Shown here one piece after another: positions 5,099 through 60,681 of a stretch of 64,000 bases of DNA (position 1 is its first letter; each line of letters begins with the position of its first letter). Location: IMG/VR virus record IMGVR_UViG_3300045284_000132; one strand, given 5' to 3'. A program made the translations under genes and the position numbers. Under the pieces are notes generated by a model. That model was not told where the DNA came from, did no database searches, and was given only the letters and a program-made list of their open reading frames with translations. The stretch is from an uncultured virus (IMG/VR IMGVR_UViG_3300045284_000132) (taxonomy: Duplodnaviria; Heunggongvirae; Uroviricota; Caudoviricetes).

Positions 5099-8000
5099 AT
5101 GTCATTGCCACCTAACTTTGGGACATTCGATGAGTTGCCACCCGGCTATCGGGACGCGCTTGTCAAGCACATGAAGGCACTTGTTGATTGGTGCGCTGTC
5201 AACAATATCGACAACGACGAATCGGTGCCTGTGCTTGCGCTCACGTGCGGCACCATTATCAAACACATGGCGCGCATCGCGCCACAGGACAACTATCAGG
5301 CACACTTGGACGAAGGCATTGCTATTGCGTGCGCGATGATCCGCACTGCAGCAACAATGAAGACGAAGCCATGAACATCAGCGACGACGACGTAAAGATT
5401 GCGCATCGTGGCGGTCAACTGATTAAGATTCTGCATCTCGCGGGCCTGCCCGGAATGGATGAGGTTGCTGTCAAGCTCAACTGCGGACTGACGTGGGATG
5501 AGCAGCGCACTGCCGAAAAATGGTTCATCGCGTTTCAGATAGCGCGATTGACTGATCAGAATATATTCGAGATGGCGAGCGAGCTTAACAAAACAGCGAA
5601 GCACTGAGGCTCATCATGATGGAATTCAGAGTCGGATCGACTCTCCTCGAAGACAAGCCGATGGTCGAGGTTTATCTTGACGGCATGTTTGTCGCTGGCA
5701 TCTATGCGAGCGAAGGCAAGAACATTCGCCAAGAACCGCGACCGGCGATCAAAGTGATCAGCAAATACTTTGAGGATTATTGCTACTATACCGATGGTGG
5801 CGAACCCTCAGCAATCCATCTGTTGTTGGACCCAGCGCAATAAATGGCAACGCAACTCGCATTGCTGATGATGGTCGCGGCTGTGCTGCTCGCGGCGTTG
5901 TGGCTTTTGCTGATCAGGTGACATTCATGCCAGCCGTCATCAAATTTCGCAAGCAAATAATTGACGATCGCCATCTGAAGCGGAAGCGACCATCGTGGCG
6001 CGTCATCATCGATCGCCAGCATCGCGCGACTATTTGTCAGGAGCTTTACAGTCGCAATCGCTATTACATCGTTGACCCGAACGGGAATTTGCTGCTGCGC
6101 GATGACGATCGCATCGGTATGACACGCCGAGATTGGGAATGGACGATCGCCGAGATGTTGGCGCACGGGTTCATCCCGACTCGAGAACAGCTAGCCGAAA
6201 AACGTCAACGACAGGAGCATGCGCCCGAATTCGATCAGATCATCGATTCACGAAAGGCGCACTATTGGTCTCGGCATCTATATGCCGCGTTGAAAATGGT
6301 GCAACGTTGCTTGCGCGATGGGACAACAATCAATGAAGTGCACAGGCGCTGCATTGACGATGCGCTCGATCGCGTGGATGGAATTTATCGATGAGCGCAA
6401 TTGATCCGATCAAAGTGCTGCGCGAGCGCGTGGGCTATCTCGATCGGATGTTGGCGGAATACAGGCTGCAGGTGCAACAACTGGAAAACGATCGCATCAA
6501 ACAAGCCGAGACCGAGCGCACTGCACTGATGGTGGCGATCGGGATAATGGAGGGACGCGATGCTGAGCGAAAGTGATCTGCACTATCTGCGCTCGATCCT
6601 TGGGCATCTGCAGGAAGTCCACACAGTTGTCGAAGGGCTGAGCTTAGGCGGTGAAGCTCTCGCCGACAACATCGATTGGCTTGATTGCTTCATCGCTCGA
6701 CATCAGCAAGTGCTCGATGCGCTTGCGAAACAAACGCGCGCAAGTGAGGGATAGAGCAATGCTAGAAAACTGTTGCATTAGCTTTGAAGTGCCCGGTGAA
6801 ATACGCGTGTCGGAGCGCAGCAAGAAAAACGAAAATGGATTGTGGGACTCGATCGAGTTAGTTGAAGTTGACAAAGCCGTTTGCGTCTCGATTGATTGTA
6901 ACGACAATGTCGATGGAATAAGTGTCGGGTTTTCCGCACATCATATCGAAAACGAAGAAAGCGGGCGCGCTTTTCATTCAACGCTCGATGCGCATTTGGA
7001 TTGGAAAGCGACGCGACAGTTGCGCGACTTTCTCAGTTTGTTGCTCACGATGAAAGATGACATCGAGGCACAAGCCGATGAGTGATGCCAGCATTCAGTT
7101 TTGCCGGAAGTGCCGTGAACCGGAATATGCCTGCGAGTGCTTCGAGCCTGCATTGCTGCCGTCGCTAGTCTCGTTGCTGATGGCTGAAAAACCAGATCGC
7201 GAGATGATCAAGCTGGTCAAGTCCGTCATGTTCGATCAGGGAGAAACGAAATGACAGAACGTCTAGGCGACGCGCCGATTGAGCCGCAATACATCGAAAT
7301 GATGAACAGGATTGCTGGCGCGCTAGATACCGCATTCAACGACAAACTTAGAGGCAACGATCGCAAGGTCGGCTTTGTGTTGTTGGTGTTTCCGTTCGGT
7401 GAAAAGGAAGGCCGCTGCAATTTCATCAGCAACGGCGCTGATCGGAAAGACATCGTTGTGCTGTTCAAGGAGATGATCAAACGATTTGAGGGACAACCGG
7501 AGATGACGGGGCGCGCATGAGAGTCAAAGCCTATCAGGATGAGCAATGGACGTGGTTGGTATCGACTGACGTGACTGCTGCTGGCGGCGGCAGTCGGGAC
7601 AAAGTCGGTGACGTACCGGATCATTTTTATGCGCGCTATCAACTTGCGCAAGCCGAATGGTTTGAGGCGCGCAAGGCGATTTTAGATTGTCTCGGAATCG
7701 AAACGCGGTGGTCTGATCAATGATGCCACGCTTTGTTAGATACTATCGCTACATGCGACGAGTAGGTAGCTCGCGATGCGAGGCGCTGACGTGGGCGCTG
7801 GCAAATCTATGGGCGAGGCGACGATGACCGAGAGGGAAATTATTTGTTTGATATTCGGCGGCGGATTTGGCGCAATCCTTGCGCTTGGAATAGCGTCAAT
7901 GTGGTTGATAGCCCGATGACTCTCAGCATCACTGTGAAAGGCGATTGCGGCAAGGTGCATTCGTCTTTTGAAGATTGGCAATCGTGCGAGGCGTGCAGAC

Positions 8001-13766: not shown

Positions 13767-14054
13767 ATGCCCGATCTGGAAAAACTCAAGGAGCTTCGTG
13801 CTATGACGGCCCAGCAATTTCAGCAAGCCAAAGCCACGATCCAACAGATCAAGGCGGCACTCGATCAAGACCCGAACGAAGTTGATGCCGACAAGATCAA
13901 GGAATTGATCAAACAACTCGAACAAAATCTTCAACAACTCGAACAAGGCGCGCAGTCACAGGCACAGGGTCAACCCGCACCGCATCCGGGCGCACCATCA
14001 CAGCCGCAAGCACCATCATCGGGTCCGCAACCGGGAACACGCACCACGCGCTGA
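13767..14054 (+). CDS. Hypothetical Q-rich coiled-coil protein
   Basis: ORF tiling directly upstream of 14056. Confidence 0.5.
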   Translation: MPDLEKLKELRAMTAQQFQQAKATIQQIKAALDQDPNEVDADKIKELIKQLEQNLQQLEQGAQSQAQGQPAPHPGAPSQPQAPSSGPQPGTRTTR

Positions 14055-14055
14055 G

Positions 14056-14676
14056 ATGCCCGATCGCCAAGTCACCGTTGATTTCAACATCAAGGATTTC
14101 ATCGCGGCTGCTGAGCGTATCGAAGGTGCCACTCAAGTCCTGCCCTACGTCATCGCAAACTTGTTGAACGACGGCGCTTTCAAAACGCGCCAAGTCCTTG
14201 TGCAAGATACGTGGCCCACTCACGTAAACGCCAGAAATAAAAACTTCATCAGCGCTGCGCTTCGAGTTGAGAAAGCAAACAAGAATAATCTCGAAGTGAA
14301 AATCTATGATCAGTTAGATCGTGGGCATCTAAAGAAACACGCAGAGGGTGGTACTAAACAAGCACGTGGGAACAACATCGCAATCCCTGATGAAGCAAAC
14401 GTTCGAAAAGGTGCAGGCGGCGTTTATAAATCACAACTGCCAAGCAGCATCATAGCGCGCACACCTAAGCGAGCACTGCGTATAACAACACATGGCATAT
14501 TTGTTGGTCGTGGTGGTCGTCTAGTGCGCATGTACTCACTAAAGCCGACAGTAGAAATAAAAGCCGATGTGCCGTTCTACAAAGACTTCCAGTATGTCAT
14601 GTTGAATGCTGTTCGCACTGGCTTTGCTGATGCAGTGGCATTCTCCTTGCGCAGACAAGCAGAGAGAAACAAATAA
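14056..14676 (+). CDS. Conserved phage protein, possibly virion morphogenesis
   Basis: 206-aa basic protein just before the packaging-site region. Confidence 0.55.
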   Translation: MPDRQVTVDFNIKDFIAAAERIEGATQVLPYVIANLLNDGAFKTRQVLVQDTWPTHVNARNKNFISAALRVEKANKNNLEVKIYDQLDRGHLKKHAEGGTKQARGNNIAIPDEANVRKGAGGVYKSQLPSSIIARTPKRALRITTHGIFVGRGGRLVRMYSLKPTVEIKADVPFYKDFQYVMLNAVRTGFADAVAFSLRRQAERNK

Positions 14677-14685
14677 CATCCTTCC

Positions 14686-15030
14686 TACTTGTTGATAGGC
14701 CAGCTATCCACCCTATGCCCCTGACGCGTTCGTGTTGATATGCTACTTGTTGATCAAACAAACTATTTGATCCATCCCCCCTCCCACTTGGGACCTAGTG
14801 CTTGATGCCATGTTGTGCTAGTTGTTGTTGATGTGAGTTGTTGTTGATGCGCCAGTTGTTGATAGCCAGTTGTTGATGCGCTCTGCCAGTTGTTGATGCG
14901 CCAGTTGTTGTTGATCGTCCAGTTGTTGTTGTTGCTCCCACTCCTTGATCCCAGTTGTTGTTGTTGATGCTAAGATGGGGTCCTGTGTGGGGCGATCAAC
15001 AACAAGTACCCCACCCCAGTTGTTGATAGG
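14686..15030 (+). repeat. Array of about 11 (CC)AGTTGTT(GTT)GAT motifs
   Basis: Directly visible, e.g. 14820, 14836, 14852, 14866, 14886, 14901, 14919, 14951, 15016; one inverted copy near 14995. Confidence 0.9.
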
Positions 15031-15272: not shown

Positions 15273-15899
15273 ATGACGGACACAGCCACAGCAGGGTTTC
15301 CCGACGTTTCGAAAGCTGAGCGCGAGCACGGCAAAAAGAGCAAGGGCGGGATAGACTTTCTCGCTGAGCATGTCGAACGCTGGCCGATCAGGAAGTTGTT
15401 TGCGAACAAGCGCAACGCGAAGCGGCATTCGCACGAACAGATTGCGCAGATCGCAGCCTCGATCAAGCAGTGGGGCTGGACGATGCCGATCCTTGTGAGT
15501 GACAGCGGCGAGATACAAGCTGGCGAGGGACGCTGGCTTGCGGCGAAGTCGCTCGACATCGAAGACGTGCCGGTGATTGTCGCGCGCGGCTGGTCGAGGA
15601 ATAAACGGCGGGCATACATGCTCGCGGACAATCGGATCGCCGAGAATGGTTCGTGGGACAAGGACGTGCTCGCGATCGAGCTTGGCGATCTGCGTGCCAG
15701 CGGGTTTGATGTGACGCTGACGGGTTTCAGTCAAAAGCAAATTGAAAATCTATTGCCGAAAGACGAAGCGGATGGCGACGGGTTGCAGTTGGGCGAGAAG
15801 TTTCAGATCATCGTCATCTGCGAGAATGAACAACAACAGCGTCAACTATTAGACAAGCTGCACAAGGACGGCGTCGAATGTCGGGCGCTAGTTGCATAA
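15273..15899 (+). CDS. ParB-like domain protein of the type linked to phage DNA-modification genes
   Basis: NAKRHSHEQIAQIAASIKQWGWTMPILV...IQAGEGRWLAAK...LADNRIAENGSWD. Confidence 0.88.
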   Translation: MTDTATAGFPDVSKAEREHGKKSKGGIDFLAEHVERWPIRKLFANKRNAKRHSHEQIAQIAASIKQWGWTMPILVSDSGEIQAGEGRWLAAKSLDIEDVPVIVARGWSRNKRRAYMLADNRIAENGSWDKDVLAIELGDLRASGFDVTLTGFSQKQIENLLPKDEADGDGLQLGEKFQIIVICENEQQQRQLLDKLHKDGVECRALVA

Positions 15900-17023: not shown

Positions 17024-17588
17024 CTTGCAAGCTGCAGGTGTCGCTGTGCTCGAATTATTCCCGCTGCCGCTGATCGGCTGCATCGTCAACGGCGCTGGTC
17101 TTGGGTTAGCAACGCTCGACATCGTGCGCCTGTACGGCGCAACGCCTGCGAATTTTCTCGATCTCGGCGGCAACGTGACGACGACGAAGGGACGCGAGGG
17201 CTACAGGATCGTCAGCAATGATCCGCGCGTGCAGGGCATACTGGTCAACGTGTTCGGCGGGATCGATCACTGCGACATCATCGCTGAGGGCGTGCTGCAG
17301 GGCGTTCGAGAATACGGTTTGCGCGTGCCGATGGTGATCCGTCTGCAGGGAACGCTAGCAGCAGAGGGACGCGCGATCGTTGAGCGCGAGAATCATCCCG
17401 GCATTCTCGCGCTTGATGATCTTGATGAAGCAGCGCAAGCGATCGTGCACGCTGTGCAGATGTGTGAGAGCTTTCCGCCCGCAAAGCGGAGAGTGGTGGG
17501 GACGGCAAGTATGCCGGACAGGCGAGCTTGCCCGCCCCTTGGAGTCTCGGCGGTTCGTGCTGACGCGTCCGCCGAGACTACCAAGTAA
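16995..17588 (+). CDS. sucC: Stand-alone C-terminal CoA-ligase domain of succinyl-CoA synthetase beta subunit (no ATP-grasp domain)
   Basis: IGCIVNGAGLGLATLD, PANFLDLGG, ILVNVFGGI..CDIIAEG, VPMVIRLQGT match the SucC C-terminal domain. Confidence 0.85.
   Translation: MRCSTRELGDLQAAGVAVLELFPLPLIGCIVNGAGLGLATLDIVRLYGATPANFLDLGGNVTTTKGREGYRIVSNDPRVQGILVNVFGGIDHCDIIAEGVLQGVREYGLRVPMVIRLQGTLAAEGRAIVERENHPGILALDDLDEAAQAIVHAVQMCESFPPAKRRVVGTASMPDRRACPPLGVSAVRADASAETTK
17545..17579. terminator. Hairpin between convergent transcription units
   Basis: GTCTCGGCGG...CCGCCGAGAC. Confidence 0.4.
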
Positions 17589-17597
17589 CAAACAAAT

Positions 17598-18200
17598 TCA
17601 TCTCCGCTTCAGTATCTCGGACGGTTTCAAATCTAGCATGCCGCGCAGAACGCCAAGTGCGAGATTGAATTCCTGTTGTTTCATTGGCAGAAGTCCTTGC
17701 TCTCCGCGCGTCTCGGCGACGCGTAAAAAGTTTAGAATTTGCCGACGATCTTCCGATTGCGGTTGATTCCAAGTATAGAAATCAGCCATCGTTTCTCTCC
17801 TTTGTCCGATTGAACAAGATGGCGATGCGCTCGGGAACAACGACGCTGTCGTTGCACTTGCGACAGCATCGCCCGTTGTTGATCGGCTGCGCGTTGTGCC
17901 CGCCTGCCCAACCGGTTTCTGGTTCCGTCTCGATCGGCTGTTTGCAGATGCTGCAGATCAGTTGCTTGCGCTTCATTTTCCGTTTCCGTTTTGTGAGAGG
18001 CGTTTGCGCCCTTTGTCGTTAATCCAATAGCGCGTGACTTTGAAGCGCAGCGCGTTACAGCCGCAGTCCTGTTCCGCGATGCGCACTAAGTGTTGTTGTT
18101 CGAGCATCATGATTTCGGCGTCGCGAATGCCGTTGACTTTGAGCGCGTGATAGGTCGCCCCATCGGGACAGCCTGCCAGTATCGTGAGAGCTTTGTGCAC
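17598..18200 (-). other. Three short coupled hypothetical genes (about 17598-17790; 17782-17976 with CxxC motifs; 17973-18200)
   Basis: Overlapping starts and stops; CSIC...CCRKC. Confidence 0.55.
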
Positions 18201-18481
18201 TATCGCCTCCCGCCGCCGTAGGTCGAGCCGGTCGAACCGGTGCGAGAGCCGCCCGCGTCATAGAAGTTGCGCCCGCCGCTGCCGGTCGGCGACGACGTGC
18301 CGGTCGAGTTGCCGCGCGAGTCGTAGTAGCGCGTGTTGCCTTGGCTGTCGGTCGCTGCAGTGCCGACGTGATTGCCGCGCGAGTCGTAGAATGGTCGATC
18401 AGTCGTCTGCGCATGCGCGCACGACAGCGCGACTGCAACAGCCATGACGGCAACAATGCCGCCAGTCAGAACGTACTTCAT
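18200..18481 (-). CDS. Small secreted protein with YDxxGxxxG repeats
   Basis: Signal peptide MKYVLTGGIVAVMAVAVALSCAHA; repeats FYDSRGNHVGT / YYDSRGNSTGT / FYDAGGSRTGS; SD GGAG. Confidence 0.7.
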   Translation of the reverse strand: MKYVLTGGIVAVMAVAVALSCAHAQTTDRPFYDSRGNHVGTAATDSQGNTRYYDSRGNSTGTSSPTGSGGRNFYDAGGSRTGSTGSTYGGGRR

Positions 18482-18562
18482 GATTGTTTCTCCGCTATTC
18501 GTGCACGATTGCACGCGCATGTGCCGCGCCGCTGTGACGGCTGACACATGGACTTGCAATCA
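18482..18562 (-). promoter_or_regulatory. Degenerate structured leader (long stem plus alternative hairpin; lacks the CUUGCA hairpin)
   Basis: UGAUUGCA..CAUGUGUC...GGCACAUG..UGCAAUC starting at the upstream stop codon; alternative hairpin CGUGCA-AUCG-UGCACG. Confidence 0.5.
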
Positions 18563-18826
18563 ACGAACGATGCGCAGGCGCGGCTTAGATTTGCCTTGCA
18601 ATCGCTGCAGCGCTCGACGCGCCGCTTGCTCTGCCGTTTCGCGATGCGGCTTTGTCAGCGCTTCGGGATCGCGCGTCAGCCGATCGCCAGTCGCCGCGTT
18701 GCCGTTGGCTGTGACAAATCGCGGCGTCAGTCTGATGTTGCGACACTTGTGATGCGGCGGGCGCGCGTTCGGATCGTGCCACCAATTGCCGGTGCGAGGC
18801 ATAGTTTGCTTGCTGGTTAGTTTCAT
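18560..18826 (-). CDS. Hypothetical basic protein
   Basis: ATG follows the conserved leader (GGAGCCUAGCUAUG). Confidence 0.7.
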   Translation of the reverse strand: MKLTSKQTMPRTGNWWHDPNARPPHHKCRNIRLTPRFVTANGNAATGDRLTRDPEALTKPHRETAEQAARRALQRLQGKSKPRLRIVR

Positions 18827-18918
18827 AGCTAGGCTCCGTGGTTCAAAGGCTCGATGCAAGTCGAGCAGTCAGCTTATACCACGATCAAGGCAAACTTGAA
18901 AAGCGATATAAGGCTGAC
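18827..18918 (-). promoter_or_regulatory. Conserved structured leader, copy 7 (hairpin and SD core; upstream stem differs)
   Basis: GCUCGA-CUUGCA-UCGAGC...ACGGAGCCUAGCU-AUG. Confidence 0.8.
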
Positions 18919-18974
18919 AGCGACGCGCTCAGCTTTACGCTAAGCTAACACGCACGTGCAGGACTTTTGATTGC

Positions 18975-19004
18975 TTGCTTGTCGCCGCGATCGGGTGTTA
19001 GAAC
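18975..19004 (+). promoter_or_regulatory. Putative sigma70-type promoter for the antisense sRNA
   Basis: TTGCTT (18975-80), 18-nt spacer, TAGAAC (18999-19004) preceded by TGn (extended -10). Confidence 0.5.
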
Positions 19005-19010
19005 CTGATC

Positions 19011-19140
19011 AGTCGCTCGATGCGCTAGGCTCCTATCGTGCACAAAGCGTCGAGCAATTAGAGCGGGAAGTATTCATGCAAGTGCTTCGCCCGTTCCCAT
19101 AAAAAAGGGGCGGCTCTCGCGAGAGAGTCGCCCCTTGGTG
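19011..19140 (+). ncRNA. Putative trans-acting antisense sRNA complementary to the repeated leaders
   Basis: Three hairpins with G-U pairs that form only on the + strand; UAGGCUCCU (19026-34) and AUGCAAGU (19076-83) complement the leader SD and loop; last hairpin has a GCGA tetraloop. Confidence 0.7.
19101..19136. terminator. Intrinsic terminator, probably bidirectional
   Basis: AAAAAA-GGGGCGGCTCTC-GCGA-GAGAGTCGCCCC-TT; U6 tail on the minus strand. Confidence 0.85.
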
Positions 19141-19189
19141 CTTGGTGCAAGATCATCGTGATCTGATCAAGAAGTGTATCAACAACAAC

Positions 19190-19417
19190 TTAGTGCAGCG
19201 ACGAGCTTTGATGCATGCGATAGAACGCGAGATTGCTTGCGCGTTCCTTGGCGTCTTTTGCCCATCGACAGTTTCCCGGTTCGAACGAACGTCGATCGGG
19301 ATCGAGCATCGTGATCCAACTGAGCGCGTGCCAATCGGACTCTGTCATCGGCTCTGCGCCTTTCGTAAACTTCATCATCGCTTCGTATGCTTTGCGTCCG
19401 TCTGATCGTTTCATCAC
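19190..19417 (-). CDS. Short degenerate HNH-like protein
   Basis: ITMLDPDRRSFEPGNCRWA resembles the HNH C-terminal motif; ATGA-coupled to the ASCH gene. Confidence 0.5.
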   Translation of the reverse strand: MMKRSDGRKAYEAMMKFTKGAEPMTESDWHALSWITMLDPDRRSFEPGNCRWAKDAKERASNLAFYRMHQSSSLH

Positions 19418-19809
19418 AAAGCTCCGTGACGTTTGAGTGTAGCGAGCACATGATCGGGCGCATCGCGTAAACCGAGACTGCCGCCCGTCAACACAAACGG
19501 GAAGCGTCGCGCGTTTTCGAACACGAATGCATACGGTCCAATGAAGTATTTGCTGCGATGATGTTCGACTACATCAACAAGATCAGCAATTCCAATCACT
19601 GCACCCGTTCGCATGTCGTCGGGATATATATCGCGCAGTGCGCCGCCACGTTCGCAAACGATGTCGGACACGTCGCGATCATCCCACTTCAGACCGGCGT
19701 GAATTAGAACCGGCCCGCGATATTCCGTTGACCACGTGCGATTCTCGACAGGCTTGATACCCGCGACAATCAACGCAGCCCACGGCTGACGTACAGTTAG
19801 CATTTTCAT
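19414..19809 (-). CDS. ASCH domain protein
   Basis: MLTVRQPWAALIVAGIKPVENRTWSTEYRGPVLIHAG. Confidence 0.92.
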   Translation of the reverse strand: MKMLTVRQPWAALIVAGIKPVENRTWSTEYRGPVLIHAGLKWDDRDVSDIVCERGGALRDIYPDDMRTGAVIGIADLVDVVEHHRSKYFIGPYAFVFENARRFPFVLTGGSLGLRDAPDHVLATLKRHGAL

Positions 19810-19916
19810 TGTAGGCTCCTGTAACGTTGAGACGCGATGCAAGTCGCGTCAGTGTTCATCATGAACACTAGCAAGGACAGCGCGCGATTGCTCGCGCGTG
19901 CCCTTGGTGGTGCTCA
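19810..19916 (-). promoter_or_regulatory. Conserved structured leader, copy 6
   Basis: UGAGCACCACCAAGG..GCAA loop..CCUUGCUAGUGUUCAU-G-AUGAACACU-GACGCGA-CUUGCA-UCGCGUC..CAGGAGCCUACA-AUG. Confidence 0.9.
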
Positions 19917-20387
19917 GCGTTTCGTTTTCTTGCTACGCTTCGGCGTTTTGTGCAAGCGCATGATGCGACGAAAGTGCGCGCCGCTGATCTTGCGATGCTT
20001 CAACAACTCGAACGCGATGGCAATGATTTCGCTGCGATACAGCGTCACCATTTCGTGCGCTTGTGCGCATGCTGCGCGTCCGATGCGGAGATGACCACGC
20101 TGCTTGAAGCAGTTGATCAACGTCTCATGAAACGCTAGCAGATCGCGATCGCTGCCGCCGATATCGTCGCCGAGAATGACGTGTTCGGCTTCAACGCCCG
20201 CACGATCAACAACAAGATCGTCAAATGGTTCTGCACAGTAGCGCGACTGCGTGAGACCGCGACCATCGTGCAACAGCTTCGCCCATTCGACGTGTCGATC
20301 GCCATCGAGCACATATCCGATGACCATGTGACCGGCTTCATGCATTGCTACGTGAAGTCGATGTTTGCTTTTGGAGAATTTCGACAT
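19914..20387 (-). CDS. Small Zn-metalloprotease-like protein (HEXXH, FtsH/M41-protease-like domain)
   Basis: AMHEAGHMVI, AGVEAE, GSDRD. Confidence 0.75.
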   Translation of the reverse strand: MSKFSKSKHRLHVAMHEAGHMVIGYVLDGDRHVEWAKLLHDGRGLTQSRYCAEPFDDLVVDRAGVEAEHVILGDDIGGSDRDLLAFHETLINCFKQRGHLRIGRAACAQAHEMVTLYRSEIIAIAFELLKHRKISGAHFRRIMRLHKTPKRSKKTKR

Positions 20388-20490
20388 TGTAGGCTCCTGA
20401 GTTTGATTGCTCGCGATGCAAGGCGCGAGAGTGATCGATGATCACTAGCAAAGCGTCACGCGTTGAAGCGTGACGCCTTGGTGGCGATCA
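20388..20490 (-). promoter_or_regulatory. Conserved structured leader, copy 5
   Basis: UGAUCGCCACCAAGG...CUUUGCUAGUGAUC-AUC-GAUCACU-CUCGCG-CCUUGCAU-CGCGAG..CAGGAGCCUACA-AUG. Confidence 0.9.
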
Positions 20491-20748
20491 GTCTCCTGAT
20501 TCGTGTATGTGCTGAATGTAATACTCGCGAATCTCGCGAGCAGCATTGATCAGCGTGTCATAGTCGTAGGTGACGGGCTCGACTTGCTTCGCGTACAACG
20601 GCAGCACGCGATCGCGAATCCAATCCATCCACCCCATGACGCTGAGGTTATTGCGAGCCATCAGCTTGTGCAACTGATAAAACTCGCCAGTGTTAGTCGT
20701 GAACAGAACGAGGTCGTGCTGTTCGATCAGGCGTGGCGGGTTTTTCAT
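20488..20748 (-). CDS. Hypothetical protein (86 aa)
   Basis: ATGA-coupled to the upstream ORF. Confidence 0.7.
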   Translation of the reverse strand: MKNPPRLIEQHDLVLFTTNTGEFYQLHKLMARNNLSVMGWMDWIRDRVLPLYAKQVEPVTYDYDTLINAAREIREYYIQHIHESGD

Positions 20749-20966
20749 GACTGATAGACCTCCGCGTCAGCCCAACTGACTTGCGGCCAATTCTGCGGCT
20801 GCTTCGTTTCGAGACCGCGATGGAAGCGGTAGCGATTTTCGTGTGCGAAGCACGCGCAGCACAAGATAAGATTGCCGCCGCCGCCGAGAGGATAGATACG
20901 AACCTCGCCAAACGTTGATCGACAATAACTGCCACTGCAGTTTGCGTTGTGAGTCTTGTAGGACAT
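20745..20966 (-). CDS. Small Cys-rich (putative Zn-binding) protein
   Basis: NCSGSYC...GGNLILCCACF; follows a conserved leader. Confidence 0.75.
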   Translation of the reverse strand: MSYKTHNANCSGSYCRSTFGEVRIYPLGGGGNLILCCACFAHENRYRFHRGLETKQPQNWPQVSWADAEVYQS

Positions 20967-21062
20967 TCTTAGGCTCCTGATAGAGAAAACGCGATGCAAG
21001 TCGCGTTAGTGTTCGTTATGAACACTATGAGACGGCGCAACGCGCGCCGTCCTTAGTGATCA
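20967..21062 (-). promoter_or_regulatory. Conserved structured leader, copy 4
   Basis: UGAUCACUAAGG...CUCAUAGUGUUC-AUAAC-GAACACU-AACGCGA-CUUGCA-UCGCGUU..CAGGAGCCUAAGA-AUG. Confidence 0.9.
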
Positions 21063-21110
21063 GTGATGTCGAGCTAGCATGCGAGTCGATATGACTGCTC
21101 GCTCGGTGCA

Positions 21111-22616
21111 TCAGTGGGCACCTACGTCAATGCCCGGAGCATTCCAAGGAGTGCGCTTCAGATATTCGCGCACGACTTGCGGATAGCCCGTGACAGCAAA
21201 CAGAACCGGGCAATCAGGCTCGGGTCCGGGGCTGTCAAATTCTAGATCAGTGAAGTTAACGATCAGGGAAGCGTCAGGCTCATTCTCTGCTACCCAATCA
21301 AACAATGGGCGCATGTCAGTGCCACCGCCACCCTTCGGGTCGAATTCGATTTGATCGGTTGAAACGTATCGATCAACTCGGGTGACGCGCGTGTCACCGT
21401 AGACCACGATCGCTTCGTTGATTGCTCCGTCGTCAAGCGCGCCTTGCGCTTCACGCGCGACACAAGCGAGCGCAATGTCATCCATTGAACCCGAAGTGTC
21501 GATCAGAAACACGACTTTGTTCACACCGTCGCGCTGCGTGCCGGGAAGTATCATTCCCTGCCCGATGAAGCGGCGGTTCGGTCGGTTCCACGTTGCAATT
21601 GTAGTTGCGCCCTGATCGATCCAAGCTCGAAAGACTTCGCGCCAATCTTGCTTCGGTTCGTTCATGCGCGCAATCTCGCGAGTCATGTAACCCGGCAGAT
21701 CGCCCGCTTTCTTTGCGAGTGCGATTGCTTGCCGCGTTATCACTTCCCAACGCGAGTCTTGCTCAGCGATTTCCGCTTGCGTGTCTGCGGCGTCTAACAC
21801 TTCGCCGCACATGCCGGGATCGCCGCTGCTTTGCGGCTCGCTGTCGTCAGCGTCAGTGTCGCTCACAGCGTTGCCGCTGTCAGTTTCACTGTCGTCACTG
21901 TCGGCATTCGCTTGACCGTTACCAGTCGCGCTCGCGCTGTCAGTTTCGTTAGCGGCGTCGTCGTCGCTGTCACCGTTGCCGGTGGCGCTTTCGTCGTCGT
22001 CGCTGTCGCTGTTGCCGTCGTCGCTTTCGTCGGCGTCGTCACCTTGTTGATCGTTGCCGTTGTCGTCGGCGTCAGTGTCGCTTTCGTCAGCTTCACTGTC
22101 GTCGTTCGTTTCGTCGCTGTCGTCGTTCGACTGTTCATCGTTCGACTCGTTTTCGTCAGCGTCGTTGGCATCGTCGTCACTCTGTTGCTGTTGTTGCTGT
22201 TCGCGTGCTCGATCAAGCTCACGACAGCGATAAATATCTTCGGCAGACATACCTTGATATTTGGGATCGAACAAGCGTCCCTCGGGAAGCTCGAACCCTT
22301 CAGACAACAAGTCACCGTTGATGGCAAGATCACAGCAGATATTCCATTCCTGATGATCACGAAAACCGCGTCGAGATGAATGGTGGCGGGCATCGTGTTC
22401 GGTTTCGTGCGCTTGTACGCCCAGCAATTGCTTTTGCGTCAGCTTCGCAACGAATTCAGGATTGTAGAAGTGAGTCTTACCGTCAGTCGCCATCGTGGGC
22501 ACAGCCCGCGTTGGCTTCGGCATGACGTTCGCGACTAGCGTGCCGTAGAACACGCGCGACGCGATCAACTCGGCGCGAGCTTTTAGAATGCGCTCGGCTT
22601 GGAGTTTGTCAGTCAT
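21111..22616 (-). CDS. DUF2201-type putative metallopeptidase with acidic linker and VWA-like domain
   Basis: TMATDG, HETEH, WNICCDLAIN; D/S/N-rich linker; IDTSGSM, GGGGTDMRP, FTDL. Confidence 0.88.
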   Translation of the reverse strand: MTDKLQAERILKARAELIASRVFYGTLVANVMPKPTRAVPTMATDGKTHFYNPEFVAKLTQKQLLGVQAHETEHDARHHSSRRGFRDHQEWNICCDLAINGDLLSEGFELPEGRLFDPKYQGMSAEDIYRCRELDRAREQQQQQQSDDDANDADENESNDEQSNDDSDETNDDSEADESDTDADDNGNDQQGDDADESDDGNSDSDDDESATGNGDSDDDAANETDSASATGNGQANADSDDSETDSGNAVSDTDADDSEPQSSGDPGMCGEVLDAADTQAEIAEQDSRWEVITRQAIALAKKAGDLPGYMTREIARMNEPKQDWREVFRAWIDQGATTIATWNRPNRRFIGQGMILPGTQRDGVNKVVFLIDTSGSMDDIALACVAREAQGALDDGAINEAIVVYGDTRVTRVDRYVSTDQIEFDPKGGGGTDMRPLFDWVAENEPDASLIVNFTDLEFDSPGPEPDCPVLFAVTGYPQVVREYLKRTPWNAPGIDVGAH

Positions 22617-22726
22617 TGTAGGCTCCTGATGTAGTAGGACACGCGATGCAAGTCGCGCGAGCGATCGAATGATCACTAGCAAACGCAGCGCGCTGATTTC
22701 TCAGCGCGTGCGCTTGGTGGCGATCA
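22617..22726 (-). promoter_or_regulatory. Conserved structured leader, copy 3
   Basis: UGAUCGCCACCAAGC..GAAA loop..GUUUGCUAGUGAUC-AUUC-GAUCGCU-CGCGCGA-CUUGCA-UCGCGUG..CAGGAGCCUACA-AUG. Confidence 0.9.
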
Positions 22727-23779
22727 AGCAAGATATTTCGAAACGTCGGCGAGAATTTCTTCCGCTGACTTTTGCACAGACACGCGAACACTGTCATCCT
22801 TGCGGAGTGTTTCGGCATCGTCACCGCACAACTCTTTCAGAATGCGATCAGTGATCTGCGTCAGTGTCTTGTCGCCGGTCATGTTGAATGACGGCAGCAA
22901 GCGTCCAAGCTCGCGGACATTCTCGACAAGCGAGTCGGTGAAAAAAGCGCGCTGCGCAGTGTCAGGCGCTTTTTTCTTTTGGGCGCTCATGTATTTGATG
23001 GCGTCAGATTTCTTGGCGAAATCTTTAGAGTTGCCATCAGGACTTTGAACGCACCACGCGTTTTTGCGATTGGTCTTGAACAGTGACCACGCGCTGTTGC
23101 TGCTGAGCGTCGTTGTATACTCAGCAAGTTTTTCTGCCATGTGACCCACGACTTTTGCGATTTGCTCATGTGTGTGTTTCATGACGTTGTTAGTTGCTTG
23201 CTGACTGCAGGCTTCGATTTCTGCTCTGATGTCGGCTTCAGTGTCGGCATCTAAGTCTGATCGAAAGTCGGCAGCATCAGGCAGGCTGCTGATATGCAGA
23301 TCGAGTTGAAACTTTGATCTGATCTCGCTTGCTGCCGGATAATCTGCAGCGTTGAACAGCGTGCCAAGATTGGCACGACGCTCCTCAACATATTGCGGAT
23401 AGTCGCGGCAGAAGTCGTCAGCAGCTTGATGAAAGTCGCGCTTGATTTCTCGAAACTTAGTTGAGAATTCACCAAACAACGCGTTTGGCAACACGCGCGC
23501 GCCCTCATCTGCCCACGGCTTTGTCATCTTGTAATGCAAAGCACGTGCGGCGCTTACCATTTTTGTGATCGCTTCCAATCGCTCGGCTTCGATCAACAAC
23601 TTGTTGTAGCGCCCTGCATTCTCGGCTGCACCGTGTTTTTCGTTCACTTCGCGAGTGACGCGCTTGTCAAGTCGTCGCGCTGTCCACTGTGAGATGGTGA
23701 CAGACGCTAGGACTGCTTTGCGCGACAGCGGCGAAGCAACTGGCGCAGTCGAAGTCAGCATTTGGGTTTTAGCTAACAT
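22724..23779 (-). CDS. DUF3150-like phage protein
   Basis: AVLASVTISQWTARRLDK, TKPWADEGARVLP, LGTLFNAADYP, LLPSFNMTGD; lies between the AAA and DUF2201 genes. Confidence 0.65.
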   Translation of the reverse strand: MLAKTQMLTSTAPVASPLSRKAVLASVTISQWTARRLDKRVTREVNEKHGAAENAGRYNKLLIEAERLEAITKMVSAARALHYKMTKPWADEGARVLPNALFGEFSTKFREIKRDFHQAADDFCRDYPQYVEERRANLGTLFNAADYPAASEIRSKFQLDLHISSLPDAADFRSDLDADTEADIRAEIEACSQQATNNVMKHTHEQIAKVVGHMAEKLAEYTTTLSSNSAWSLFKTNRKNAWCVQSPDGNSKDFAKKSDAIKYMSAQKKKAPDTAQRAFFTDSLVENVRELGRLLPSFNMTGDKTLTQITDRILKELCGDDAETLRKDDSVRVSVQKSAEEILADVSKYLA

Positions 23780-23875
23780 TGTAGGCTCCTGATAGTTTGA
23801 AAGTAACCCGATGCAAGTCGGGAGCGTTCGGGATGAACACTATGACAGCGCCCGTGGGCGCTGCTTTAGTGATCA
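23780..23875 (-). promoter_or_regulatory. Conserved structured leader, copy 2
   Basis: UGAUCACUAAAG...UCAUAGUGUUC-AUCCC-GAACGCU-CCCGA-CUUGCA-UCGGG..CAGGAGCCUACA-AUG. Confidence 0.9.
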
Positions 23876-24874
23876 CTGAATCAAGACATCTTGATTCTTC
23901 ACAGCCCAATTTCCATAGGCTGCGATGTTCTTTAGGTTCTCATCTCGGCGCGTTGCATCAGTAACTGCCAAGATTTGAAATTCGCGCGGCAATCTCTCGG
24001 CGTACTTGACGACTGCCGGGAAATTTTTGCGCGTCGCCATTCGCGCGATGCCGGTGCAAACGGCATATCGCGCGGACGGCTCAGACGGAACGTCTGCGCT
24101 CTCAGGGTTTGCGATGATGTCATCGAGTGAACCCAGCGAGCGATACAAACGAATGAACCCTTCAAGCTCACCCGCGACAGCGTCGCCGATAAGCCCCGCA
24201 AACAAGTCGTGCCGCAGATCATCGGGCGCACCGACATACTTGCTGCACTTTGTGAGTGAGCGAGGAGTCGGAAACGCGTTTTCGTCACCGTTCGGCATGA
24301 CGTGAATGAATTCACGACGAAAACGAACGAACGCGATAATTTCAGGCGCAACATTGTTTGCAACTGCCCATGTCGTCCATGCATCAACATCAACGCAGAT
24401 GTCGATGTGTGCGAAGCGATTGCGCAACGCTGTAGGCATGCGTTGTGCTGCTGCGCGGTCTCTGACGCGATTGCCCGCTGCGACGATCGTCCACCCATCG
24501 GGCAAACGATATTCGCCAATCTTTCGTTCGAGGACGAGACCCATGCACACTGCCATCACTTGCGCGCTGGCGGTGTTCATCTCATCAAGAAACAAAGTGC
24601 CGCGCGGACCGTCACGATCAGCGCGAGGCAATTCGTCAGGGGTGAACCATCGAGTCGTGCACGTCTTGATGTCGGTGACAGGCACGCCCCGAAAATCGAC
24701 AGGCTCGCGAAGATTGGTGCGAAGCTCGATCACGGGACGCTTGTCAGCGGCAGACTCTTGATTCGAAACGTCGGTCTTGCCAATTCCCGGTGCGCCCCAC
24801 AGGAAGACAGGTTCATTCTGCTTCATGTAGTAGGAAAGCAAACGCGCGGCTTTGGCAATGTTAACTTCTGGCAT
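23873..24874 (-). CDS. MoxR/dynein-related AAA+ ATPase
   Basis: WGAPGIGKT, LFLDEMN, AAGNR, ALRNRF, FPTPRS. Confidence 0.92.
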   Translation of the reverse strand: MPEVNIAKAARLLSYYMKQNEPVFLWGAPGIGKTDVSNQESAADKRPVIELRTNLREPVDFRGVPVTDIKTCTTRWFTPDELPRADRDGPRGTLFLDEMNTASAQVMAVCMGLVLERKIGEYRLPDGWTIVAAGNRVRDRAAAQRMPTALRNRFAHIDICVDVDAWTTWAVANNVAPEIIAFVRFRREFIHVMPNGDENAFPTPRSLTKCSKYVGAPDDLRHDLFAGLIGDAVAGELEGFIRLYRSLGSLDDIIANPESADVPSEPSARYAVCTGIARMATRKNFPAVVKYAERLPREFQILAVTDATRRDENLKNIAAYGNWAVKNQDVLIQ

Positions 24875-24979
24875 TGTAGGCTCCTGATAGTTAGGAAATG
24901 CTCGATGCAAGTCGAGCAGATACGCGACAGCGCATCATGAGACAGTCGAGCAAATTTATCACTCGACTGTCCTTGATAC
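24875..24979 (-). promoter_or_regulatory. Conserved structured leader, copy 1
   Basis: GUAUCAAGG...CUCAUGAUGCGC-UGUC-GCGUAUC-UGCUCGA-CUUGCA-UCGAGCA..CAGGAGCCUACA-AUG. Confidence 0.9.
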
Positions 24980-25608
24980 ACTAATGCAGCGCGCGTCAGG
25001 AAACGGCGCTGCATGTTGACCCTCCTAAGCGGAGAGCCCTTGATCAGATTCACGATGGGAAAAAACGCGTGCTTGAATTGTGGGGCTGACGAAGTTTTCA
25101 GCGCGCAACGATCAACTCGGATCGCGCGCAGGTACTGACGCTTGTCTCTGCTTACTTACATTCGCATCGCTTCCGGCGACGCCCCGTCCCTGTGATGATC
25201 ACGCTTGCAACGCGATCATCGAACAGCACGCTAACACTGATTCAGATTTCTTGATCGCATCGCATCGCATGAAGCTAGTGGCGTTTTCGGATCGTCGTTG
25301 TTCGTCTCGGCGCGAGAGCATCGCGACGATTCACAACTGCCTACTAACAGCGGTCGCCAACGCGGCGGCGCGATCAAGGAAGTCGTCTGATTCAGTTGTC
25401 AAATAGCGAAAGCTCAAAAGCACTAGATCAGCGTTTTCAAGCTCAACTTGAATATCGCAAATCCACAGTTACGCGTCAATCTTTATCCCTACGGGCAAGC
25501 TATTGAAATCACAGGCGAATTTAGGTCGAACATCGCAGAAACGTTGATTCTATTGACTTTCTGGCATGTGCGACGGGCGGTAATGTCACCAACGGTAGCG
25601 GTAGCGCA

Positions 25609-26265
25609 ATGGCCGATGAAGCTGGAATCATCTCAACTGATGTCGCGGTCAAGTTGTTGTTGCTCGATAACGCAAAGGAGTTGCAAGCGCTATCAGCGGC
25701 GGGCTGGTTTAATCGCGTGGGGATCAACCGGTGGCGCACTGTTGAATTGGTGCACGGTCGCATCAAACAATTGAAGCAAGCCGCAGATCTTGTCAGCAGC
25801 GGTCGCCTCGCAGAAATATTCAACGTGCATCACACACAGCTTTTGAAGCTCGAACGCGAGGGCTGGTTTCGACGCGAAGCGAACAATCAATGGTCGCTGA
25901 TCAAAGTCATCGGCGGGGTCATGCGCTACTACACGGACCCGGCGCGTCGCGCGAATAAGTCAGCGACAGAGTCGAGGGTCGGTCAAGCTCGCGCGCGAGA
26001 AATCGAGTTGCGCACGGCGCAGCGCGCTGGCGAATTGTGCGAGACTGCGGAAGCTGTCGCGCTGGTCGATGACATCGTTGGAATGCTACGCGCTGATCTG
26101 TCGGGGTTGCCTGCAATGGTAACGCGTGATCTTGTTATCAGGCGCGACATTGAAAAGGCGTTGAATGACATCCTCAATCGAATCTCGGCGCGTCTCATCT
26201 TGCAAGCCGACAGTTTGGAAAAGAGCGGGGAAGTTGCTATCCGTCCCGTCGCTCTCGACTCCTGA
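25609..26265 (+). CDS. terS: Terminase small subunit (Nu1-like)
   Basis: HTH-like N-terminal half and coiled coil ARAREIELRTAQRAGEL; immediately before the large subunit. Confidence 0.8.
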   Translation: MADEAGIISTDVAVKLLLLDNAKELQALSAAGWFNRVGINRWRTVELVHGRIKQLKQAADLVSSGRLAEIFNVHHTQLLKLEREGWFRREANNQWSLIKVIGGVMRYYTDPARRANKSATESRVGQARAREIELRTAQRAGELCETAEAVALVDDIVGMLRADLSGLPAMVTRDLVIRRDIEKALNDILNRISARLILQADSLEKSGEVAIRPVALDS

Positions 26266-34789: not shown

Positions 34790-35092
34790 ATGACGACGCC
34801 CATGCGAATGATTCGGCCCACTCTCAAAGTCATGCCGAATGACAGTCATCCGAAATTGCAAGCCGATCCTGAAGGCTCGGCGCACATGACGGGAGAAAAG
34901 TTGCGCAAGTGGTTGAAGCATCCCACCGCTGGCGGATTCCCGCCCGAGGGACCGGCAGTGTGGCCGCGCGATGGCTTCACGTTCGCTCGCATTCGGGACG
35001 GCGACGTGGTCGTTGTAGAAGGCGATGTGAGCAAACCGGGACCTCAAGTTAAAACAGCTACTCCACAGGCACAGAATACCAGAACAGAATAG
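34790..35092 (+). CDS. Small pre-sheath protein (DUF2635-like)
   Basis: WPRDGFTFARIRDGDVV; directly upstream of the sheath gene. Confidence 0.65.
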   Translation: MTTPMRMIRPTLKVMPNDSHPKLQADPEGSAHMTGEKLRKWLKHPTAGGFPPEGPAVWPRDGFTFARIRDGDVVVVEGDVSKPGPQVKTATPQAQNTRTE

Positions 35093-59519: not shown

Positions 59520-60681
59520 CATGCGCGCCATACTTATTGATCCCAAGCTGCGTCGCATCATCGATGTCGAGTTGCCCGACAAGGACCCGGCCATGCTCTA
59601 TGACATGCGTCGCCTGATCGGCTGCAAGAACATGGATCACACGACGATCAGCGACAAGCACGATACGATTTGGGTTGCTGATGACGGGCTGCAACAAGCG
59701 AGATGCTGGGCATTCAAGATCAGAACTTCAGATCCGTTTGCTGGCACTGCAATCATCATCGGTGCCGATCGTCACGGCAACACGCGCCCGCCGCACGTGC
59801 CGATCGAGTGGCTTGAAAACGATGTGACATGGCTTGATTTGATAGAACCGGAAATTCATTGGGAGGAAGTGCCGTTGACGCTGCCCAACGGTGCAGTAAT
59901 AACGCGCGTGCGCAGCTTCGTCACCTACCGCCGTGCACGATGATCGATCCCAACGATCACGAATGCTACGATGGGCGCTCTCCTGAGCCGCAGCGCGCAC
60001 GAAACAAGGACATGATCAGACACGTCAGTGTGGATTCGATCATGCGCGAGGTCGATGATGCGATCGATGAGCGCGCGGTGTCGCGCGATGACGCGATGAA
60101 ATTTCTACAATCGATGCTGCTGCAGATCGAGTTGCGCATGGGCTGGGTGCGAGACGCCATCAGAGAGCAACACAAATGAAACCGACGCTGCCGTTTCAAG
60201 CGGAGCACGAACAAAATATTCGCGACTATGCTGCGACGCTGACGACGATTCAGCTTGCGCAGGAAATTAAATTCAGAGTGAACCGTGCAATCGCCATCAA
60301 CAACAGCGGAGCTTTTCGAGTTGCCAGTTTACTGATGATCGAATTCGAGACACGCGCCGACGCTGATCAAAGCACTCGCAAGAAAATCCGCAAGATGCGC
60401 ACGATGATCGACTTCGCGATTCGGGAAACCCATAAATGACCTGTGGATTTTGCCAGCGCATGCGCCGTCTGCCGCGCGCCCTGATCGAGCGGATCGTCGC
60501 CGCGCAGACGAAAGCTAAACCATTCGCTGTCAGCTTGCATCATGCAGACGGCAGACCCTTGACGGCTGGCGAGTTACGACCGGGGCAGACTGTCAGATTC
60601 GATCCGGCGACCGGCTTAGTGGAGGTAGAAAATCACCACGAACAGCCGATCAGCGCGAGCCCTAAGAGAATCAGCAGGTAG
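59509..60681 (+). other. Four coupled hypothetical genes (59509-59943, about 59940-60179, 60176-60439, 60436-60681)
   Basis: ATGA overlaps. Confidence 0.6.

Follow-up and report, generated by a model that had tools for sequence, protein, structure and literature searches.

To our knowledge, the antisense RNAs described in phages, such as C4, CI, OOP and sar, each control one operon. The CI RNA of phage P4, which serves in immunity, pairs through a short box with repeated target boxes; its action is on the termination of transcription in its own operon, from whose transcript it is also processed, and C4 is released from the transcript of the one operon that it targets. In phages P1 and P7 the loop boxes of the C4 antisense RNA pair at the ribosome-binding site of a phage mRNA and block its translation, and changes in the boxes set heteroimmunity, according to the C4 passages of a review (PMC12197685). 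A different kind of repeated element, the start-associated sequences (SAS/ESAS), is found in the Cluster K mycobacteriophages. As the relevant sections of three papers describe it (PMC3203893; PMC11373665; PMC12699233), a box that contains AGGAG and extends beyond the part pairing with 16S rRNA is found 3-9 nt ahead of the ATG in 13-19 non-structural genes; these boxes are in one orientation, and an inverted repeat, at a variable distance, often lies upstream of them. In the same sections the role is called unknown in 2011, 2024 and 2025, a phage-encoded RNA or protein partner is left open, and Pope et al. report one reverse-oriented, gene-less SAS per K1 genome. Here we discuss a locus that bears similarities to both kinds of system. 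It lies at positions 18975-19143 of a 64,000-nt stretch of DNA from an uncultured tailed virus (IMG/VR record IMGVR_UViG_3300045284_000132; the whole stretch is called the window below), and we read it from its sequence, with a probability of roughly 0.68, as the gene of a plus-strand small RNA (sRNA) of about 130 nt that would be directed against the leaders of seven minus-strand genes.

The predicted RNA resembles C4, as both are structured phage RNAs with two short loop boxes (here 9-10 nt, and 7-8 nt lying partly in the loop) complementary to targets at ribosome-binding sites. It differs from C4 in that the boxes are complementary only on the strand opposite to the leaders, where a promoter-like motif and terminators are also found, and in that the single target operon is replaced by 3-9 dispersed targets that are defined by a repeated leader. 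The likeness to P4 CI is that a short box pairs with repeated target boxes. The window RNA has no Rfam match: no family reached its gathering score in the whole window, and a permissive scan of 18850-19250 gave no C4, the c4-a1b1 score of 12.5 bits (46.7 needed, E 1.6) being a chance value and CC2171 (21.7 bits), Xoo2 and HgcF falling far below threshold. The original prediction likewise did not recognise the element as one of a described family. The leaders themselves have their nearest analogue in SAS/ESAS, as they carry an AGGAG box near the ATG, all seven on the minus strand, with hairpins upstream. However, they do not match the 13-nt SAS consensus GGGATAGGAGCCC at up to 2 mismatches, as it is given in the SAS sections of PMC3203893 and PMC12699233; they read CTATCAGGAGCCT(A), and by eye only AGGAGCC is shared. 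The phages and hosts are also different, and the gene-less copy is in leader orientation and is accompanied by transcription signals on the opposite strand. For SAS, moreover, no partner RNA is known to have been suggested at any particular locus.

The genes between 17.6 and 25.0 kb are directed along the minus strand, and the seven that carry the leader lie within 18.8-24.9 kb. The leader begins with a variable, GC-rich hairpin A, followed by a conserved TTGCTAGTG or TCATAGTG, hairpin B (AGTGWTC..GAWCRCT), hairpin C (a co-varying stem with the invariant loop CTTGCA, CUUGCA in the RNA), a spacer, AGGAGCCTA and the ATG. Hairpins B and C have loops of 3-8 nt; the box in the loop of hairpin C is separated by 15-20 nt from the Shine-Dalgarno (SD) box, which ends 2-3 nt before the ATG. 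A covariance model trained on these leaders (R1) detects exactly seven copies, at 58-78 bits, when both strands of the window are searched, and nothing else above 10 bits. RNAalifold recovers hairpins B and C, with double-sided changes at 5 of their 12 pairs. The seven leaders are:

18821..18898, minus strand: leader 1, of gene 18560-18826; R1 score 58.4 bits
19804..19880, minus strand: leader 2, of the ASCH-domain gene 19414-19809 (Pfam); 74.1 bits
20382..20458, minus strand: leader 3, of gene 19914-20387; 71.2 bits
20961..21037, minus strand: leader 4, of gene 20745-20966; 74.6 bits
22611..22688, minus strand: leader 5, of the DUF2201 metallopeptidase/VWA gene 21111-22616 (Pfam); 78.5 bits
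23774..23853, minus strand: leader 6, of the DUF3150 gene 22724-23779 (Pfam); 64.7 bits
24869..24948, minus strand: leader 7, of the AAA_5 MoxR-like ATPase gene 23873-24874 (PHROG, Pfam); 71.3 bits

The SD box, AGGAGCCUA at the RNA level, stands before the ATG in the leaders. Exact copies of AGGAGCCTA are located on the minus strand at 19812, 20390, 20970, 22619, 23782 and 24877, and a further one at 19026 is in the candidate RNA region; the leader at 18830 has CGGAGCCTA in its place. With up to one mismatch there are 12 matches against 4.1 expected, a number that none of 100 shuffles reaches. The loop box ACTTGCAT is found on the minus strand at 18854, 19837, 20994, 22646, 23811 and 24905, again in the candidate RNA region (19076), and at 40035, i.e. 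8 matches in total against 2.7 expected; the copy at 40035 is inside a coding region and is judged to be a chance occurrence. The claim from which this work started, that two boxes are shared by seven leaders and that their complement is present in the candidate region, is thus confirmed.

In leader 1 the place of hairpin B is taken by a sigma-70-like, promoter-like sequence, TTTTCA (18902-18897)-N18-TGgTATAAG (18878-18873). Hairpin B is otherwise kept throughout the family in sequence as well as in structure, as (C)ATAGTGTTCAT-N-GAACAC, in the window, in the related contigs L141, L143 and L474-L477 (see below) and in at least about 10 more IMG/VR contigs, and its variant stems co-vary (AGTGATC/GATCACT, AGCATTC/GAATGC, AGTGTTGC/GCAACAC). 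A promoter, a processing site or a protein site are open candidates for its role.

The candidate RNA region contains both boxes without a change (17 of 17 nt), and its parts are listed here together with their counterparts in relatives, which are described further below:

18975..18980, plus strand: -35-like TTGCTT; same position and TTG core as TTGTCG (L143, L147) and TTGCTG (L474), anchored on the conserved 5' motif
18996..19004, plus strand: TG and -10-like TTAGAAC, 7 nt before the conserved 5' motif, like TTATCT/TTATGT in L143, L474 and L147
19011..19016, plus strand: AGTCGC, corresponding to the AATCGC that marks the predicted 5' end of the RNA in relatives
19015..19055, plus strand: hairpin 1, stem GCUCGAUGC/GCGUCGAGC with a 23-nt loop; its one G-U pair is a C-A mismatch on the minus strand
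19026..19034, plus strand: box 1, UAGGCUCCU, in the loop of hairpin 1; complement of the leader AGGAGCCUA
19061..19096, plus strand: hairpin 2, GAGCGG/CCGUUC and GAAGUAUU/AGUGCUUC, loop CAUGCA; three G-U pairs, loop unpaired with probability 0.99
19076..19083, plus strand: box 2, AUGCAAGU; complement of the leader hairpin-C loop (A)CUUGCAU
19101..19134, both strands considered: terminator hairpin GGGGCGGCUCUC-GCGA-GAGAGUCGCCCC; the A6/T6 tract 19101-19106 serves the minus strand, the stem is at 19107-19134

Box 1 pairs exactly over 9 nt with six leaders and over 10 nt (GCUAGGCUCC) with the leader at 18830. Box 2 has 7-8 nt of complementarity to all seven leaders, although in the two leaders with a GCTCGA stem the longest match is another one, GCATCGAGC (9 nt). 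When 19008-19150 is folded, the plus strand reaches -66.7 kcal/mol (z -5.3) and the minus strand -49.7 kcal/mol (z -2.6). Among 3193 scanned segments the raw difference between the strands is at the 2.9th percentile, after regression on G+T content its z is about -2.5, and the segment at 19021 is the 8th most plus-biased. The minimum free energy structure of the plus strand has 5 G-U pairs. The hairpins and the plus-strand preference of the G-U pairs are therefore as the original prediction had them, and the last loop, GCGA, fits its GNRA assignment. As to the predicted promoter, TTGCTT-N18-TAGAAC with a TG upstream, the sequence is indeed there, but a consensus scanner does not flag it. It stands back to back with the promoter-like TTTTCA-N18-TGgTATAAG of gene 18826, about 70 nt apart. 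On the minus strand the terminator hairpin has 11 pairs, one A-C mismatch and a perfect U6, and lies 42 nt past the stop of gene 19179-19463 (minus strand). The combination of a GC-rich hairpin and a U tract that characterises an intrinsic terminator is present on this strand only. The terminator scanner flagged 19101-19134 on neither strand, having missed it on the minus strand because of the mismatch in the stem.

The idea that the region is simply an eighth leader was ruled out, as R1 gives no match there at E<=10 on either strand. No start codon follows its SD box, the gap between loop box and SD box is 41 nt compared with the 15-20 nt of the seven leaders, and pieces of hairpin C (GCTCGAC, GCATCGAGC) are dispersed through the region, with a weak collinear alignment to the leader at 24877.

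No close DNA relatives were present among 50,697 phage records (megablast with 17500-25700; blastn with 18800-19200). The pattern CTTGCAT-N14-40-AGGAGCCTA gave 118 single, dispersed matches in IMG/VR and no contig with several, and a stricter leader pattern had no match in either metagenome or genome contigs. At the protein level, the flanking 88-residue protein had no relatives, the ASCH protein had relatives at only 38-40% and without repeats, and cultured phages reached at most 35% for the ATPase and at most 35% for the DUF2201 protein. The AAA ATPase of the block, however, led to metagenome contigs at 52-60% identity (55-58% for L143 and L147), and a scan for the hairpin-B motif, which was then extended, added further IMG/VR contigs, their number being a minimum. 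All of the related contigs share the leader architecture, with the SD boxes GGAGTCTAC, GGAGTCAC or CAAATGGAGAA and the hairpin-C loops CTAGCA, CTACCAA, CTTGCA or CGCAAC. Eight leader-bearing contigs end before the far end of the block (L141, L142, L145, L146, L148, L150, G003 and G006). The distal end is readable in eight phages, i.e. the window and seven relatives on 3 metagenome or 4 IMG/VR contigs (L143, L147, L473, L474, L475, L476 and L477), and in all eight exactly one gene-less copy of the SD box adjoins the terminator that closes the block. We call these copies orphans. They share conserved sequences that are unrelated to the leaders, AATCGCG and CGCGAGGGCCG. The copy in L475 was matched by a model (R2) built from the candidate RNAs of five relatives (27.7 bits, E 6e-4) and then inspected by eye. 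R2 did not find the RNAs of the window and of L476, because these are too diverged, so that the membership of both rests on position, boxes and architecture; a three-way MAFFT alignment including the window was uninformative.

In L475 and L477 a gene for an XRE-type helix-turn-helix protein adjoins the RNA, and this neighbour together with the pair of promoter-like motifs may indicate a regulatory hub. A palindrome, GATATGGGCCATATC, situated upstream of the candidate promoter and before the next leader-strand gene, is perfect in L147 (about 15560-15580) and occurs as half sites in L143 (about 13960-13980), in L474 and perhaps in the window (18905-18915); it could be an operator.

If the orphan encodes an RNA that acts on the leaders, its boxes should follow those of the leaders of the same phage. 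As a measure we took, for each RNA against all leaders of all phages, the longest exact complementarity to the SD/start region. Box 1 is of four types in the four subgroups (AGGAGCCTA, GGAGTCTAC(AATG), GGAGTCAC and CAAATGGAGAA), and it matches its own leaders over 7-12 nt, compared with about 5 nt for the leaders of other subgroups. The window RNA has a mean of 9.1 nt with its own leaders and of 4.9-5.4 nt with all others. L143, L147 and L474, which form the GGAGTCTAC subgroup, have means of 8.1-11.7 nt among themselves, L473 and L477 have means of 7.1-8.3 nt with their own and each other's leaders, L476 has a mean of 10.9 nt with its own leaders and L475 10-11 nt with 3 of 3 leaders. Even between the near-identical L473 and L477 the flank of the RNA box (CGUGAC and UGUGAC, respectively) changes in step with the leaders (GUCACG and GUCACA). 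The complementarity also extends in a different way in different phages, through the start codon in L474 (CAUUGUAGACUC) and into the spacer in L476 (GACUCCUUGUAG). Box 2 is at the homologous alignment position in L147 (UGCUAGAC) and in L473/L477 (AUGCAAGAC), where it faces the leader loops CUAGCA and CUUGCA, respectively; it is present in the window, L147, L476, L473 and L477, and was not scored as present in L475. Compared with shuffled RNAs, the duplexes with own leaders have z-scores of -3.1 to -5.5, with 0-3 of 200 shuffles being as good, and after correction for accessibility the net energy on the seven leaders of the window ranges from -6.4 to -10.2 kcal/mol for box 1 and is about -3.3 kcal/mol for box 2. 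A seed complementary to conserved target sites and co-varying with them across relatives, the mark of a trans-acting sRNA, is thus found here. The retention of the element by related phages and the co-variation of its boxes had been set beforehand as the comparative test of the antisense reading, and both came out in its favour.

Transcription signals help to tell the strand. In L143, L147 and L474 the block's own terminator faces a second hairpin with a U tract on the opposite strand, which is the layout of convergent genes; the U tracts of this second hairpin are AUUUAUCUUUUU in L147 and UUUGUUUUUCU in L474, and in L143 they are on both strands. The scanner flags the block's own terminator in L143 and L147. 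L473 and L477 have one bidirectional terminator hairpin flanked by A8 and UUUUGAGUUU, and L475 has a hairpin of its own with UUUUGAUU, so that 6 of the 8 phages (L143, L147, L474, L473, L477 and L475) have a terminator whose U tract is on the RNA strand. Bidirectional intrinsic terminators between convergent genes are a known arrangement that fits L473/L477 and, in part, the window, but it explains only 19101-19134 and neither the boxes nor the hairpins upstream. At the other end, L143, L474 and L147 share TTG(T/C)(C/T)G-N16-TTAT(C/G)T (N16/17), followed after 7 nt by AATCGC, and the spacers are unrelated. L473 and L477 have TTGnGn-N15-GATACn before the same AATCGCG, and the window aligns to the motif as TTGCTT-N17-TTAGAA-N7-AGTCGC. 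The conserved AATCGCG pairs with a conserved CGCGAG and so closes the domain that displays the anti-SD box; in L473/L477 one pair of this closing stem is U-G, which would be C-A on the other strand. The fold energies, antisense minus leader strand, are -14.5 kcal/mol in the window, -7.4 in L473, -9.5 in L477, -7.4 in L476, -0.6 in L147, +1.1 in L143 and +3.7 in L474, so that the antisense fold is the more stable one by 7-15 kcal/mol in 4 of 7 phages. A leader-strand promoter would not fit between the terminators and the boxes. Finally, three orphans (L473, L474 and L477) have CGAG in place of the SD core GGAG and keep the remaining box, a change that fits better with selection for pairing than for ribosome binding, as far as the sequence tells. 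Taken together, these signals point to an independent transcription unit opposite the leaders.

There are, on the other hand, several points that weigh against an antisense RNA. The eight phages represent only about four independent subgroups. The promoter scanner, which uses the E. coli consensus, flagged none of the promoter-like motifs in the window or the relatives; these are weak, and the -10-like element of the window matches TATAAT poorly, its last position not being T. The antisense terminator is flagged by the scanner in L474 only, those of L143 and L147, which it misses because of bulged stems, having been called from the fold and a visible U tract. The window and L476 have no U tract on the RNA strand but only one on the leader strand, and in the window the plus-strand terminator hairpin, with 12 pairs including one G-U, is followed by the U-poor tail TTGGTGCTT (19135-19147). 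Folding is neutral in 3 of 7 phages. Box 2 is at background level in L143 and L474, and in the window its 6-nt loop exposes only UGCA (4 of 8 nt), with AGU in the stem. The CGAG change by itself leaves a working start site possible, as the next real gene of L474 starts with CGAGTCTACAATG. Moreover, the boxes of the orphan are direct-repeat copies of those of the leaders, so that co-variation alone does not separate a complementary RNA from an identical copy on the same strand. Lastly, window DNA occurs in 4 public runs, all soil metagenomes and one of them probably its source, with no RNA run among them.

The alternatives can be weighed against this background. The orphan might be a gene-less copy on the leader (minus) strand that serves as a decoy or an extra binding site for a protein, an RNA or the ribosome that recognises the leaders, either as a transcript formed by read-through of the terminator or as DNA. 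The boxes have the same strand and order as in real leaders, which makes the plus-strand complementarity equivalent to a direct-repeat copy, and co-variation is equally expected; the orphan of L476 even retains a leader-like hairpin and a 17-nt spacing, and in the window and L476 the only U tract is that of the leader strand. We nevertheless consider this explanation unlikely, since one strong leader-strand terminator (two in L143, L147 and L474) precedes the element and leaves no space for a promoter on that strand, L147 and L474 have U tracts on the antisense strand only, the fold bias and the G-U pairs speak for the opposite strand in 4 of 7 phages and clearly for the leader strand in none, the SD core is lost in three orphans, and the spacing of the boxes varies, being 41 nt in the window against 15-20 nt in its leaders. 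The leading reading at the outset was that gene loss or recombination between repeats had left the scrambled remains of one or two leaders, without function beyond the adjoining minus-strand terminator, as suggested by the recurring pieces of hairpin C, the weak alignment to the leader at 24877, the lack of a start codon past the SD box and the flux of indels in the block (about 167 extra nt near 19412 in the strain of run X2). It was overturned by the relatives: a remnant is hardly expected at the same place in 8 of 8 phages, with ATPases of L143 and L147 only 55-58% identical, nor would it share AATCGCG and CGCGAGGGCCG with other orphans. The two boxes are intact (17/17) in a region otherwise unrecognisable to the leader model, the plus-strand fold bias speaks against it as well, and so does the sequence conservation among strains described in the next paragraph; what is left for this explanation is a very small chance. 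Another candidate product, a small protein from plus-strand frame 18971-19102 (43 codons), in which the TTG start has AGGA 7 nt upstream and the stop is directly followed by the hairpin, was rejected. The open frame and the SD-like AGGA are there, but the peptide has no Pfam match, a six-frame comparison with the homologous regions in 6 relatives shows nothing similar (scores <=31, the self-match being 216), and the start would fall inside the conserved promoter-like motif, which makes this the least credible of the explanations considered.

The strain data that bear on a remnant come from the public runs. A near-identical strain in run X2 has no differences in 18817-19264, whereas 18675-18816 carries 19 substitutions as well as indels and 19411-20422 carries 13 substitutions. 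Of the contigs of run X4, one of 151 nt that spans 19036-19183 shows a single indel and no substitutions, and one that spans 18837-18987 shows 10 differences, with at least 9 falling in 18869-18947; the X4 contigs leave 18988-19035 uncovered and may stem from different strains, and the X3 contigs do not cover the region. This is compatible with constraint on the RNA, but the divergence is mosaic and we give it little weight. In the X2 strain the about 167 extra bases lie between 19414 and 19411, where genes 19179-19463 and 19414-19809 meet, and the highly diverged indel patch 18675-18816 is inside gene 18560-18826; both point to mosaic exchange within the block.

We thus favour the anti-leader RNA, for which the following mechanism can be proposed. 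A weak promoter, TTGCTT-N17/18-TTAGAAC, would start the RNA near 19009-19011, convergent with the minus-strand block. The RNA would fold into three hairpins, of which hairpin 1 displays UAGGCUCCU and hairpin 2 part of AUGCAAGU, and hairpin 3 would be a terminator shared with the upstream minus-strand gene. Acting in trans on all seven leaders, it would cover the Shine-Dalgarno sequence by the pairing of box 1 and most likely stop translation initiation, perhaps with cleavage of the duplex, and box 2 may speed the first contact. As the SD of the leaders is in an unstructured spacer, pairing would cover the ribosome-binding site itself, and translational repression of the seven genes is therefore the favoured outcome; we put SD occlusion at about even odds. 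A kissing contact through box 2 is conceivable, but support for it is weak, as two relatives do without this box. The transcription of the RNA, the direction of regulation, the order of pairing and the timing in the phage cycle are likewise inferred. An RNA that is real but does not block translation, acting instead through premature termination or processing (as P4 CI does), through stabilisation or through interference by convergent transcription, has a small chance in our view. The RNA is indeed convergent with the block and shares its terminator, the leaders have the extra conserved hairpins A and B, and Duplexfold gives long imperfect duplexes beyond the boxes, but the longest and best-conserved complementarity is always over the SD or the start codon, and in an unstructured spacer there is nothing for pairing to open.

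A possible parallel is found in the SAS of mycobacteriophages. Mycobacterium phage Anaya (L479) has 16 forward SAS copies and 1 reverse copy. The reverse one (34871-34883; 59,870-59,882 in the record) is in a 385-nt gene-free gap between gp96 and gp97 (59,682-60,066), past a terminator, and on the transcribed strand this gap contains GCGCGG-CCUCCUAUC-CCGCGC, with the anti-SAS in the loop of a hairpin (-26.7 kcal/mol, z -2.8). By analogy, this hairpin is a possible counterpart of the window RNA, and we point to it as a lead. A search of the full-text literature, with subscription journals outside its scope, gave no paper whose title or beginning of abstract mentions a phage RNA that targets a leader shared by several genes.

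The rest of the window is that of a tailed-phage genome or a large part of one. From 25.6 kb on, the plus strand encodes small and large terminase, portal, a protease/capsid fusion, tail sheath, tape-measure-like and fibre proteins; an integrase (908-2224), ParB-like proteins and a helicase are also encoded, and there are no tRNA genes across the window. In the minus-strand block the genes recognisable with Pfam and PHROG are a MoxR-type AAA ATPase, a DUF3150 protein, a DUF2201 VWA/metallopeptidase and an ASCH protein, besides three small unknowns. The predicted promoter of the block (25479-25451) is separated from the first leader by a region of about 570 nt, in which an 11-codon frame with a strong GGAGG site is located (25013-25048, minus strand). 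The best match of the terminase is to Microcystis phage Mae-JY30 (48%), whose genes are arranged differently and include no such block. Among genomes, the closest relatives of the block ATPase (L184-L191, 45-51%) are in Hyphomicrobiales prophages of Mesorhizobium, Anderseniella, Pseudochrobactrum, Hoeflea, Brucella tritici and Ancylobacter, which suggests that the host of the window phage is alphaproteobacterial. These distant prophages (Mesorhizobium, Hoeflea, Brucella tritici, Pseudochrobactrum and Ancylobacter; ATPase 45-51%) have other or simpler leaders. For example, a prophage in a metagenome-assembled Hoeflea genome (L187, ATPase 47%) has 7 copies of a CAATCATGC...GGAGA leader (CCCCGCAATCATGC-N-GGAGA; 7036-7113 and six more sites), and no clear counterpart of the RNA was found in it. 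One of its copies is degenerate (GGAAAA) and gene-less with a hairpin after it, and the order of box and hairpin fits the leader strand rather than an antisense one.

Outside the block, at least 8 closely spaced copies of ATCAACAAC(AAC)TGG are present at 14820-15030 (minus strand), between the plus-strand genes 14056-14676 and 15273-15899 (ParB-like), and single copies occur at 19178 and 36682. By its sequence the array looks like the iterons of a replication origin or a binding array for partition or a regulator.

For the biology of these phages we can tentatively, and with less than even confidence, imagine a family of temperate phages, probably of soil Alphaproteobacteria, in which many non-structural genes are placed under one portable leader, one sRNA controls the set by means of an anti-Shine-Dalgarno loop, and the RNA and the leaders co-evolve as lock and key. 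The anti-leader RNA may then provide a phage-specific "translational immunity", and by analogy the same logic may explain the SAS/ESAS motifs of the Cluster K mycobacteriophages, some of which are used in phage therapy and diagnostics. If the reading is true, an RNA that governs many dispersed genes via one portable ribosome-binding leader would add a new layer to gene control in phages, and boxes that change in step with their targets would be a natural determinant of specificity between related phages. Short box pairs of this kind would also make compact, orthogonal translational switches. Finally, the anti-leader RNA offers a candidate, testable type of partner for the start-associated sequences, whose role in Cluster K has been open since 2011.

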